A stretch of DNA of 64,000 nucleotides, taken from the NCBI RefSeq assembly GCF_048403405.1, contig NZ_CP183129.1, one strand, 5' to 3'. The notes beneath the pieces are model-generated. The model did not search any database and had not been told where the DNA came from. It worked only from the letters and a program-made list of their open reading frames with translations. The position numbers were made by a program, and so were the translations under genes. This document shows, piece by piece, positions 27,690 through 28,054 of the stretch. The DNA is from Escherichia coli. Its GTDB lineage: Bacteria; Pseudomonadota; Gammaproteobacteria; Enterobacterales; Enterobacteriaceae. Position 1 is the stretch's first letter. The number at the start of each line of letters is the position of its first letter.

Positions 27690-28054
27690 ACCATAGACAA
27701 CATGAATATTAATGTTACTATCTGGTTGAGACTGTTGATAAAACATAAAAAGGAATGCTCTGTTCCTGCAACTGAACAGGCGTGAAACGCTATCCAACAG
27801 GATGGATACCGTTTTGTCAGCCAGTTTTATAGATCACACTTATGAGTATGCGTGTTTCATTTACGGCCAGGAATGCTGATGATGACAACATTACTACCCG
27901 TTTTCACTAAGCCTTCCCCATTGGCGCTCAATGCTCTGCGCGCTGGTCGTATTTGCCGTTTCCTTCTTATCCCGGATGGAAGAATCCGCTGAACGTCGTT
28001 CGGCGGCAGTTGTAACACGCGTCGTTTGTTTACAGGGATTATGGCGGGTCGATT

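Follow-up and report, generated by a model that had tools for sequence, protein, structure and literature searches.

yhiY, a small-protein gene in the yhiI-rbbA-yhhJ leader of Escherichia coli: a conserved uORF start, a Rho-dependent 3′ end and predicted RNA helices

Introduction

What does a short translated ORF do at the head of an operon? In tnaC-tnaAB, an arrest peptide blocks the access of Rho. toiL, upstream of topAI, and the leader ORFs of antibiotic-resistance ABC-F and erm genes are ribosome-stalling sensors. trpL, hisL and leuL are translated leader ORFs that overlap RNA hairpins upstream of their operons, and AcrZ and KdpF are single-pass, hydrophobic small membrane proteins that partner transporters. 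In mdtU-mdtJI, finally, a small uORF upstream of an efflux operon is followed shortly downstream by a Rho-dependent 3′ end, and dependence on uORF translation has been validated (Adams et al. 2021).

The leader of the E. coli yhiI-rbbA-yhhJ operon carries a short ORF, yhiY, that can be set beside each of these systems. Like mdtU, it is a small uORF that precedes an efflux operon and is closely followed by a Rho-dependent 3′ end, but yhiY-yhiI figures only as a candidate in the paper of Adams et al., and whereas at least 17 genera share the MdtU C-terminus, the YhiY peptide is conserved only within Escherichia. Like tnaC, yhiY ends in UGA and precedes Rho-dependent termination ahead of structural genes, and a ribosome at its stop codon would adjoin the termination zone. 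It differs from tnaC in that W12, D16 and P24 of TnaC have no counterpart in YhiY, the region behind its stop is G-rich and not rut-like (C/G 0.57), no inducer is known, and the length of the uORF varies across genera.

With toiL and the ABC-F and erm leaders, yhiY shares the position of a short uORF before ribosome- or efflux-linked genes, and its conserved part comprises the initiation region and the first 4–5 codons, where initiation-acting antibiotics stall ribosomes. Unlike the soluble ABC-F proteins, RbbA is a membrane ABC-2 type fusion; we identified no stalling motif in YhiY, and the literature searched reports no response of yhiI-rbbA-yhhJ to antibiotics. As in trpL, hisL and leuL, a translated leader ORF upstream of an operon overlaps RNA hairpins, but the YhiY sequence MMTTLLPVFTKPSPLALNALRAGRICRFLLIPDGRIR has no run of regulatory codons, and there is no intrinsic terminator: termination here is Rho-dependent. 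YhiY also differs from AcrZ and KdpF, for it has no membrane-spanning hydrophobic stretch.

Results

The short ORF upstream of yhiI is yhiY

An earlier note on a 64,000-nt stretch of E. coli DNA (the window; RefSeq assembly GCF_048403405.1, contig NZ_CP183129.1) had drawn attention to a hydrophobic ORF of 37–39 codons at 27873–27992, about 60 bp upstream of yhiI on the same strand. The ORF is present as described. The + strand translates from the first ATG to MLMMTTLLPVFTKPSPLALNALRAGRICRFLLIPDGRIR* (39 codons from ATG 27873, 37 from ATG 27879, end at 27992); a third ATG lies at 27882, and in the ORF list the frame is open from GTG 27852 through 27992. A spacer of 62 nt separates the end of the stop codon from the start of yhiI at 28055. 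The AGGA that the note had seen ahead of the second ATG occupies 27869–27872, at a spacing of 6 nt.

This ORF is yhiY, an already annotated and experimentally detected small-protein gene, which the note had rediscovered without recognising it.

27879..27992, + strand: yhiY CDS, 37 codons plus UGA (RefSeq WP_001296785.1; Pfam PF23514).
28055..29122, + strand: yhiI, HlyD-family periplasmic adaptor (ORF list, RefSeq, Pfam HlyD_3 and HlyD_D23).
29119..31854, + strand: rbbA, fused double ABC ATPase and ABC-2 permease (ORF list; NCBIfam NF033858, 1596 bits against a cut-off of 1050).
31770..32978, + strand: ORF containing yhhJ, the last operon gene (ORF list; putative start; operon name from the literature).

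The 37-residue product is identical to WP_001296785.1 as annotated in K-12 and matches Pfam PF23514 over its whole length (103.1 bits, E = 6.1e-30, cut-off 27; residues 1–37 on profile positions 1–37); NCBIfam holds no YhiY model. Being shorter than the 40-aa minimum of the protein search, the peptide was followed by locus-based tblastn instead. In sequence, strand and place between yhiJ and yhiI, the ORF is the small-protein gene yhiY of Weaver et al. (2019), and in every annotated E. coli record inspected yhiY sits directly upstream of yhiI on the same strand. The published start is the second AUG; the 39-codon version begins at the first, 6 nt upstream of the annotated start.

By itself, the length of yhiY is no more than chance would give. 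Among 5000 dinucleotide-preserving shuffles of the 365-nt yhiJ-yhiI spacer, 2434 (49%) contained an ATG ORF of at least 37 codons on the + strand. What places yhiY above chance is its annotation, the Pfam match, the published translation and mass-spectrometry data, and the conservation of its start region across genera. Ribosome profiling, which the note had proposed as a check, was already published: Onc112/retapamulin profiling of initiation complexes assigns the yhiY start to the second of three AUGs, with a strong initiation signal. The protein has been detected by top-down, DIA and PRM mass spectrometry at about 1000–3000 copies per cell, in the top-down data as an intact species. The leader peptides TnaC and MgtL were also detected in that study, and detection therefore does not discriminate a leader peptide from a functional protein.

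The word hydrophobic applies to YhiY weakly (GRAVY +0.49): its best 19-residue Kyte-Doolittle window reaches 0.99, four prolines are spread along the peptide and the net charge is +5. A value of 0.99 is well under the hydropathy usually expected for a membrane-spanning segment, and in 19-residue windows no hydrophobic stretch of membrane-spanning grade, as in AcrZ or KdpF, was seen. Weaver et al. predicted no TM helix in any of the new proteins.

Promoter and transcript

27694..27721, + strand: sigma-70 promoter TAGACA-16-TACTAT with TG upstream of the -10, for the yhiY-yhiI-rbbA-yhhJ transcript (consensus scan).
27728, + strand: probable transcription start of the K-12-type leader (5′ end of a primer of Adams et al.).
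27722..27838, + strand: lineage-specific 5′ leader extension, single copy, only in yhiJ-carrying E. coli.

A constitutive RpoD promoter is listed for yhiI-rbbA-yhhJ (PMC3946193), which points to control after initiation. Upstream of the leader, a homologous promoter, ATAGACAT-N17-TGTTAGTAT, is kept in all aligned genera and in Hafnia. The forward primer of the yhiI fusion of Adams et al. begins, in its insert-specific part (GAGACTGTTGATAAAACGTAAAAAGG), at 27728, 7 nt after the -10 hexamer, and we take this position as the likely start of transcription. Reckoned from the promoter and this start, yhiY sits within the yhiI 5′ leader.

The extension at 27722..27838 is confined to 4282 of 5426 E. 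coli genomes, those that also carry yhiJ; in yhiJ-less E. coli and in other genera it is missing, and the promoter lies directly upstream of the conserved block described below. As the 117-nt extension is single copy, we rejected the idea that it is a repeated mobile element. Two published leads were also set aside: the site in a riboswitch-prediction paper that names yhiI (PMC4448311) lies some 6.6 kb off and is irrelevant here, and a FlhDC SELEX peak near yhiI is inside the gene, not in the leader.

Most transcripts end before yhiI

28012, + strand: Rho-dependent RNA 3′ end by Term-seq, -43 from yhiI (Adams et al., Supplementary file 3; coordinate converted here from MG1655 3630645).
27885..27940, + strand: uORF-body tract rich in C and poor in G, candidate rut (Rho loading) region (composition).

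The 3′ end lies 20 nt past the yhiY stop codon. Without BCM, Adams et al. counted 762 reads upstream and 101 downstream of it, and with BCM 792 and 351, so that the read drop across the site is 87% and is relieved by bicyclomycin. They gave it a Rho score of 3.34 (‘Yes’) and the flag ‘uORF’; its intrinsic-terminator score of 2.14 stayed under the threshold of 3, and our terminator scan of 27993–28054, between yhiY and yhiI, found no terminator-like site. In the same work a yhiI fusion was more than 2-fold higher in rhoR66S, a termination region was placed inside yhiI, and yhiY-yhiI was listed among the candidates for uORF-dependent regulation.

How far does this carry the earlier note's idea of a regulatory leader peptide? 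The shared transcript, the Rho-dependent 3′ end, the rhoR66S effect and the listing by Adams et al. all agree with it, while the effect on yhiI itself has the standing of a candidate; the literature searched held no report of abolished yhiY translation altering downstream expression. The note's further thought, that a leader ahead of the ribosome-associated RbbA would be notable, found no support: what RbbA does is called unclear in the literature, and one of the papers on it has been retracted.

To judge from its composition, the tract at 27885..27940 may serve as a rut site. C/G is 1.63 over 27885–27985, C-minus-G peaks at +12 to +17% in 60-nt windows, and C exceeds G in the uORF body of every leader type (C/G 1.4–3.5) despite diverged sequences. 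The G-rich region 3′ of the yhiY stop is not rut-like.

A conserved start and a variable peptide

We compared about 140 enterobacterial leaders, about 90 of them of the Escherichia type; 54 of the 140 are identical to that of the window. The Shine-Dalgarno (SD) sequence, AUGAUG and the following ACN-ACA are kept in Escherichia, Citrobacter, Pseudocitrobacter, Salmonella, Kluyvera, Klebsiella, Raoultella and Enterobacter. In every genus sampled the uORF opens with the codons MMTT, or MTT if the first AUG is missing. An N-terminus MMTT(L/F) is near-universal among the leaders, where it coincides with constraints at the nucleotide level. The length of the uORF is 3–4, 15, 37, 45–46 or 72–98 codons across genera: in Kluyvera it has only 3–4 codons, and Klebsiella-type uORFs extend through the yhiI start. 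In the Citrobacter freundii group the uORF is frameshifted; the nucleotide blocks are unchanged and the stop still lies inside the hairpin P4 described below. Conservation across Enterobacteriaceae, another check proposed in the note, thus holds for the SD, AUGAUG and first codons and fails for the sequence, length and frame of the peptide.

As a whole peptide, YhiY is conserved only within Escherichia, where the 37 residues are intact in most of the roughly 90 sequences. Even there, dN is 0.05–0.10 and omega 0.26–0.53, against 0.005–0.008 and about 0.02 for yhiI, a roughly tenfold difference in dN; dS of yhiY is lower than that of yhiI. Natural frameshift, nonsense and IS1 alleles exist, Escherichia sp. 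E1V33 carries a natural allele with its stop codon outside P4, and uORF peptides from outside Escherichia score under the PF23514 cut-off. Counted by eye, synonymous changes outnumber non-synonymous ones in the C-terminal half of Escherichia YhiY. Among type I leaders, the FLLIP(D/E)G motif at the C-terminus survives in one frame or another in Escherichia, Citrobacter and Pseudocitrobacter and has diverged (IHIPDE) in Salmonella; its conservation, too, coincides with nucleotide-level constraints.

An alternate-frame ORF at 27842–27910 was discarded, since its seeming conservation comes only from overlap with an invariant block (across genera, 3 changes are synonymous and 5 non-synonymous). No alignment with the yhiY leader was possible for those of Proteus, Providencia and Morganella. 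Hafnia has the shared promoter, an unrelated 50-codon uORF and no clear terminator.

Predicted structure of the leader RNA

27848..27859, + strand: conserved 5′ block AUGCGUGUUUCA, P1 5′ strand, predicted to pair with 28011–28022.
28011..28022, + strand: P1 3′ strand UGUAACACGCGU; in nearly all leaders analysed its distance from the yhiI AUG is fixed at -43/-42.
27865..27870, + strand: P2 5′ strand GGCCAG, overlapping the Shine-Dalgarno AGGA at 27869–27872 (RNAalifold on A3).
27943..27948, + strand: P2 3′ strand CUGGUC, codons 22–24, an anti-SD-like element with a conserved CTGG core.
27959..27982, + strand: predicted P3 hairpin UUUCC-U-UCU / loop UAUCCC / GGA-U-GGAAG (RNAalifold).
27986..28006, + strand: predicted P4 hairpin CCGCUGAAC-GUC-GUUCGGCGG, with the yhiY UGA (27990–27992) in its 5′ arm (RNAalifold).

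The conserved nucleotide blocks, which are kept independently of reading frame, are predicted to form four helices, among them a long-range helix, P1, that would enclose the uORF. The 5′ block GCGTGTTTCATTT is invariant; the one change seen falls in the ATG ahead of it, at the second base (ACG in Pseudocitrobacter). In 36 distinct variants the P1 duplex has a predicted energy of -10.8 to -17.1 kcal/mol, and the -43 strand is always the best partner of the 5′ block in the leader. Variation in P1 is nearly all A/G opposite U or C/U opposite G. We also considered the two strands as half-sites of a DNA operator and rejected this, since their differences are nearly all of the U-G wobble type and speak for RNA pairing; support for that preference is statistically modest (about 0.07, by a crude count).

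By pair counts the P2 5′ strand is paired in 99.4% of cells, and an equivalent helix is predicted independently in Klebsiella-type leaders, as is the P1/P2 architecture in these divergent sequences. Amid a variable uORF middle, the P2 CTGG core is kept (TGG being invariant), in frames that differ between Escherichia and the C. freundii group. P3 is 98.6% paired and its closing pair covaries (UG 31, AU 15, UA 5); P4 is 98.7% paired, with compensatory changes in two pairs, and the two overlapping frames of the C. freundii group both end within its 5′ arm (CGCTGAATAG). P1–P4 together are 99.1% paired against 33–44% in slid controls, figures to be read with the fact that the structure was derived from those same sequences, that most helix positions are invariant and thus uninformative, and that shuffles match the pair-count measures. 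Double changes occur in only 3 of 39 pairs. Folded as a single sequence, the leader shows no unusual stability relative to shuffles (z = -1.7 and -1.1), and a search of 27650–28150 with the Rfam 15 covariance models gave a best E of 6–10, far under gathering scores.

Two further pairings are predicted. The P3 loop AUCCC can pair, as a pseudoknot, with GGGAU at 28035–28039 in essentially all sequences, with almost no variation; and a local hairpin of 27852–27861 with 27881–27891, likewise invariant, competes with P1. Masking of the yhiI ribosome-binding site by yhiY sequence was rejected as a general mechanism: if uORF translation opened the site, its predicted unpaired probability would rise from 0.05–0.15 to 0.46 in Escherichia, and the prediction holds for Escherichia only.

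Discussion

Is yhiY a gene for a working protein, or a leader in which the act of translation is what counts? On balance we lean towards the latter, and think it somewhat more probable than not that yhiY is mainly a cis-acting uORF, set in a conserved, folded leader, that determines escape from Rho-dependent termination just before and inside yhiI. A constitutive sigma-70 promoter would transcribe the leader, and the C-rich, G-poor uORF body would load Rho when free of ribosomes. Initiation at the SD-AUGAUG would be limited by RNA pairing, with P2 masking part of the SD and the conserved 5′ block paired either locally or with the -43 block in P1. Translation of yhiY close behind RNA polymerase would cover the rut-like tract until the ribosome stops at the UGA in P4, and polymerase would reach yhiI. 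Were yhiY left untranslated, Rho would terminate transcription and the RNA would be trimmed to 6 nt past P4, at 28012. We infer the coupling of uORF translation to termination, as well as the roles given here to P1–P4. A start site conserved across genera together with a peptide that is not is as expected for a cis-acting uORF.

Some observations sit less easily with this mechanism. A uORF of 3–4 codons, as in Kluyvera, cannot shield a rut site, and this, together with the Klebsiella-type uORFs that run past the yhiI start, means that one simple shielding model does not fit all genera. As FLLIP(D/E)G is kept in some frame, a peptide-specific role is possible, and accumulation of YhiY to levels seen by mass spectrometry also fits a protein with a function of its own.

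Several small proteins encoded beside transporter genes are transporter subunits or regulators, and YhiY might likewise act in trans, for instance on the YhiI-RbbA-YhhJ exporter, which it could bind or tune, or on another partner, the leader position of yhiY only ensuring co-expression and any effect in cis being incidental. Its copy number and intact state, the many intact Escherichia sequences and the 54 identical leaders, the excess of synonymous changes in the C-terminal half and the curation of YhiY as a Pfam protein family all speak for such a protein. However, the whole peptide evolves with a dN about ten times that of yhiI and an omega of up to 0.5, has no TM-grade hydrophobic segment, changes in length and frame outside Escherichia (down to 3–4 codons in Kluyvera) and is disrupted in natural frameshift, nonsense and IS1 alleles, while its detection by mass spectrometry is shared with TnaC and MgtL; we regard a trans-acting YhiY as unlikely. 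Somewhat less likely still, in our estimate, is that the leader RNA itself, through P1–P4 and the 5′ block, is the regulator, responding to a ligand, a protein, an sRNA or temperature, with yhiY translation a by-product or read-out. Both P1 strands lie at fixed positions in all genera, nearly all substitutions keep the pairing, the nucleotide blocks persist whatever the reading frame, and dS is lower in yhiY than in yhiI; the 5′ block core is moreover invariant even where its partner strand varies, as if a further constraint, for instance a second partner, acted on it. Against this stand the lack of an Rfam match (best E = 6), weak covariation, unremarkable folding z-scores and the lack of a known ligand or binding factor; and since the strictest conservation includes a canonical SD and an AUGAUG demonstrably used for initiation, translation is unlikely to be irrelevant.

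That yhiY is translational noise, an ORF arisen by chance in a long 5′ UTR where an SD happens to precede it, with a peptide and a translation that do nothing, strikes us as very improbable. An ORF of this length arises in about half of the shuffled spacers, the sequence evolves fast and disrupted alleles occur in nature, but the SD and AUGAUG are kept in at least eight genera while the flanking leader diverges beyond alignment, type I leaders keep the uORF stop inside P4 even after a frameshift, and both the profiling signal at initiation and the protein are there to be measured.

A further reading, put forward tentatively and as less probable than the preferred mechanism, is this: the unit under selection may be a structured ‘translated leader’ of about 175 nt, spread across Enterobacteriaceae, rather than the YhiY peptide, with the ribosome on SD-AUGAUG as its sensor. 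Its parts would be the invariant 5′ block, a P1 helix around the uORF with its end exactly 43 nt ahead of yhiI, and, inside the uORF, the anti-SD helix and the stop-codon hairpin. A ribosome initiating on SD-AUGAUG-ACN-ACA (MMTT) would sense, for example, translation stress or initiation-acting drugs, and so decide whether Rho terminates transcription or the exporter is expressed; the ATPase of that exporter, RbbA, is itself reported to bind ribosomes. Such an RNA element has no Rfam entry and no description in the literature searched.

The ORF as first submitted adds nothing new: annotation, a Pfam family and evidence of translation were already in place for yhiY, and it had been named as a possible uORF regulator. 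The RNA architecture of its leader is a modest new lead. A conserved start beside a variable peptide, nucleotide blocks that do not depend on frame and a helix at a fixed distance from yhiI offer targets by which peptide-specific, translation-dependent and RNA-structural mechanisms can be told apart. With some 87% of transcripts ending before yhiI in rich medium, it is the leader that decides expression of the exporter.

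Identity and expression of yhiY

Upstream of the yhiI-rbbA-yhhJ operon, an earlier note had placed a short hydrophobic ORF and proposed it as a regulatory leader peptide. Its coordinates, strand and spacing were accurate: 27873-27992 translates to MLMMTTLLPVFTKPSPLALNALRAGRICRFLLIPDGRIR followed by a stop, the stop codon ends at 27992, and yhiI starts on the same strand at 28055. Three ATGs lie in the start region (27873, 27879 and 27882), with AGGA at 27869-27872. The ORF is the annotated gene yhiY itself; the observation is confirmed and was already known.

27879-27992, + strand: yhiY, 'protein YhiY' (RefSeq WP_001296785.1), 37 codons from the second ATG

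The gene order is yhiJ (DUF4049), yhiY, yhiI (HlyD family), rbbA. Over 27600-28200 the sequence matches strain TUM14771 at 100% identity and K-12 at 98.8%, in reversed orientation relative to the K-12 map, and a 601-nt query was matched in 5412 of 5426 complete E. coli genomes, with yhiY annotated in nearly all matches listed. Pfam has a dedicated family (PF23514 YhiY; the peptide scores 103 bits, cut-off 27), and a YhiY model is absent from NCBIfam. ORF length alone is no evidence, because an ATG ORF of 37 codons or more turns up in 49% of dinucleotide-preserving shuffles of the yhiJ-yhiI spacer (365 nt). The peptide (net charge +5) is no more than mildly hydrophobic (GRAVY +0.49); it contains four prolines and its best 19-residue window reaches just 0.99, a hydropathy that rules out a hydrophobic transporter-accessory protein. 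A 72-codon antisense ORF (27857-28075, - strand) across yhiY and the yhiI start found no support and was treated as a chance ORF.

Is yhiY translated? The ribosome profiling proposed in the earlier note exists in print: Weaver et al. (bioRxiv 10.1101/511675) discovered the gene as ORF9/yhiY with Onc112 and retapamulin; their best candidates were tagged, and 36 of 38 were detected. Proteomics from 2025 (PMC12529367) saw YhiY by top-down, DIA and PRM mass spectrometry, at about 1000-3000 copies per cell, and likewise detected the leader peptides TnaC and MgtL.

Transcripts also end in this leader in a Rho-dependent manner. Adams et al. (eLife 2021, PMC7815308) mapped an RNA 3' end to MG1655 3630645, -43 from yhiI and equivalent to window position 28012, where upstream and downstream read counts are 762 and 101 in the absence of bicyclomycin, as against 792 and 351 in its presence. 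Its Rho score is 3.34 ('Yes'), its intrinsic-terminator score 2.14 (threshold 3), and it carries a 'uORF' flag. Further observations of that study are another 3' end, which falls on the stop codon of yhiY (-65, window 27990), a bicyclomycin-sensitive region within yhiI, and a yhiI 5' UTR+ORF fusion that rises more than 2-fold in rhoR66S. Since yhiY-yhiI is listed there among untested candidates for uORF-dependent regulation, the idea of a regulatory uORF is already published as a hypothesis. The Rho-dependent end, the rhoR66S effect and this candidate status lend partial support to the regulatory leader of the earlier note, which is not a new idea.

Promoter and leader extension

A consensus scan gave TAGACA-16-TACTAT as the promoter of the yhiY leader transcript. 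Shimada et al. (PMC3946193) list the same promoter as a constitutive RpoD promoter of yhiI-rbbA-yhhJ, and the fusion primer of Adams et al. (PMC7815308) begins at window 27728, 7 nt past TACTAT. The promoter ATAGACAT-N17-TGTTAGTAT is kept directly upstream in Escherichia, Citrobacter, Pseudocitrobacter, Salmonella, Kluyvera, Klebsiella, Raoultella and Enterobacter, and also occurs in Hafnia. A Hafnia alvei locus (L028, 2210-2500) has a TAGACA-16-TAGTAT promoter, an unrelated 50-codon uORF ending 51 nt before yhiI, and then a U-rich stretch; this leader may be independently evolved or strongly diverged. Leaders of Proteus, Providencia and Morganella could not be aligned.

In the window and the K-12 lineage, a single-copy 117-nt segment (27722-27838) separates the promoter from the conserved leader. 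Of 5426 complete E. coli genomes, only the 4282 that also carry yhiJ possess it; yhiJ (DUF4049) and the extension occur together, as a presence/absence polymorphism (26067-27838). In most yhiJ-less E. coli genomes yhiM is the divergent neighbour and the promoter lies about 20 nt from the conserved block; leader length therefore differs by about 100 nt between lineages.

Conservation of the start region

The comparison combined yhiI loci, taken from a single genome for each species, with 120 metagenome stretches bearing the conserved block; the leader set totals about 140, 73 of them distinct. A stretch of some 60 nt (27842-27900) hardly varies; it includes ATGCGTGTTTCATTT and then, at a constant motif offset of 27 nt, GCTGATGATGAC, which holds the Shine-Dalgarno sequence AGGA and AUGAUG. 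On peptide conservation across Enterobacteriaceae, a check proposed in the earlier note, the peptide as a whole is not kept beyond Escherichia: uORF peptides from outside Escherichia score under the PF23514 cut-off, and lengths run from 3 to 98 codons.

uORF length by lineage
Kluyvera: 3-4 codons (MMTT or MTT, then stop)
One metagenome lineage: 15 codons
Escherichia: 37 codons
Citrobacter, Pseudocitrobacter, Salmonella diarizonae: 45-46 codons
Klebsiella, Raoultella, Enterobacter types: 72-98 codons, most (78-98) running through the yhiI start

A 1-nt indel in the C. freundii group separates the frame of the MMTTLLP N-terminus from that of the FLLIPDG C-terminus, and both frames still stop within the same hairpin arm (CGCTGAATAG). 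That conserved blocks are read in different frames among genera argues for constraint at the nucleotide level. Within Escherichia, yhiY shows dN of 0.05-0.10 and omega of 0.26-0.53, compared to 0.005-0.008 and about 0.02 for the adjoining yhiI; its dS (0.15-0.22) lies below that of yhiI (0.28-0.33), in line with what RNA-level constraint on synonymous sites would produce.

Altered natural alleles occur at loci L005, L124, L163 and L008. At L005 (E. coli E423, 1792-2598) an IS1 insertion replaces the yhiY start, and rbbA is also a pseudogene (internal stop). Other alleles are a frameshifting 8-bp duplication, R35stop, and, in Escherichia sp. E1V33, a +1 frameshift that moves the uORF stop into the 3' strand of helix P1 (below). 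At L177, a metagenome contig, the conserved start has its first AUG changed to ACG and is followed by sequence resembling a REP-type palindromic repeat.

An alternate-frame ORF (27842-27910, + strand; MSMRVSFTARNADDDNITTRFH) overlaps the invariant 5' block and appears conserved to Klebsiella (MRVSFKARIADDDHINRTSF); its substitutions, about 3 synonymous versus 5 non-synonymous, show no sign of coding. The same frame stays open as far as the yhiY stop in the C. freundii group, where it forms a 57-codon ORF. A direct repeat, GATTATGG (28037-28044 and 28051-28058), found only in Escherichia, spans the yhiI start codon and provides an out-of-frame ATG at 28041, right after AGGGA.

A predicted leader fold

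RNAalifold on 17 type I leaders (a type that includes Escherichia, Citrobacter, Pseudocitrobacter and Salmonella) yields four predicted helices.

P1, 27848-27859 with 28011-28022: long-range helix around the entire uORF
P2, 27865-27870 (overlapping the Shine-Dalgarno sequence) with 27943-27948: anti-Shine-Dalgarno helix
P3, 27959-27982: hairpin
P4, 27986-28006: hairpin whose 5' arm carries the UGA stop

Across 52 distinct sequences of type I, the fold pairs 99.1% of cells, whereas sliding the partners by 1-3 columns leaves 33-44%; most helix columns are invariant, and the structure derives from the very sequences tested. Variation in P1 and P2 nearly always preserves pairing (U-A to U-G, G-C to G-U; C-G in Pseudocitrobacter), the 3' strand of P2 keeps a CTGG core within the variable uORF middle, and compensatory pairs occur in both P3 and P4. 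Double changes affect just 3 of 39 pairs, a count that shuffles also reach. When RNAalifold was applied independently to 17 leaders of the Klebsiella/Raoultella type, which differ strongly in their interiors, P1 came out again, along with an equivalent of P2 (UAAGGC with GCCUUA) and a hairpin immediately ahead of the 3' strand of P1. That strand lies 43 or 42 nt ahead of the yhiI AUG in nearly all leaders analysed, and the P1 duplex (-10.8 to -17.1 kcal/mol) is the best available partner in 36/36 distinct variants. Single-sequence folds are not unusually stable, and the leader matches no Rfam family.

Two further candidate pairings were noted: the P3 loop AUCCC (27969-27973) with GGGAU (28035-28039) upstream of yhiI, and the 5' block (27852-27861) with the yhiY start codons (27881-27891), which would exclude P1. 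Both are beyond the reach of covariation, because the sequences are almost invariant across type I leaders.

The uORF body is C-rich and G-poor (C/G 1.63 in the window, 1.4-3.5 in every leader type), and the segment after it is G-rich (C/G 0.4-1.0). This composition fits a putative Rho loading zone in the uORF, followed shortly by termination. When exonucleases trim RNA that Rho has terminated, they are expected to stop just past a hairpin, as at 28012, 6 nt beyond P4.

Discussion

What does yhiY do? We lean towards a cis-acting uORF in a structured leader that governs Rho-dependent attenuation. Ribosomes starting at the conserved SD-AUGAUG would cover a rut-like tract until they terminate in P4, allowing polymerase to reach yhiI; upon poor initiation, with P2 and the 5' block limiting access, Rho would terminate. 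This leaves gaps in the model: with 3-4 codons, the Kluyvera uORF is too short to protect a rut site, and in Klebsiella-type leaders the long uORF overlaps the start of yhiI. Because of these exceptions, the sole feature common to all genera is initiation with the first few codons. Among the genera compared, only in Escherichia is uORF translation predicted to unmask the ribosome-binding site of yhiI.

The abundance of YhiY and an ORF intact in most Escherichia would suit a trans-acting small protein, but a peptide that evolves this fast, its sequence lost outside Escherichia, makes such a role unlikely. Less probable again is an RNA-only regulator in which yhiY translation is incidental, and a start site conserved across genera makes mere noise highly improbable. 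A classical attenuator was rejected because the leader has neither a codon run nor an intrinsic terminator. Most similar in working to the attenuating uORF that we favour are mdtU-mdtJI and tnaC-tnaAB, in which uORFs control Rho-dependent attenuation; unlike those uORFs, yhiY seems to have no conserved sensor peptide, and its control of yhiI is putative.

The earlier note's appeal to the ribosome association of RbbA calls for caution. The protein, encoded at 29119-31854, is a membrane fusion of the ABC-2 type. A NAR paper of 2025 still handles truncated RbbA as a ribosomal E-site ATPase and calls its role 'less clear', and the 2011 PLoS One paper that tied it to the ribosome and to YhjD was withdrawn by retraction in 2025 (PMC12169533). 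The structured leader, which is kept regardless of frame and has a long-range helix at a fixed position, offers a modest new lead. It is possible, if doubtful, that it forms a genuine RNA element that senses ribosomes, which would be moderately interesting if so.
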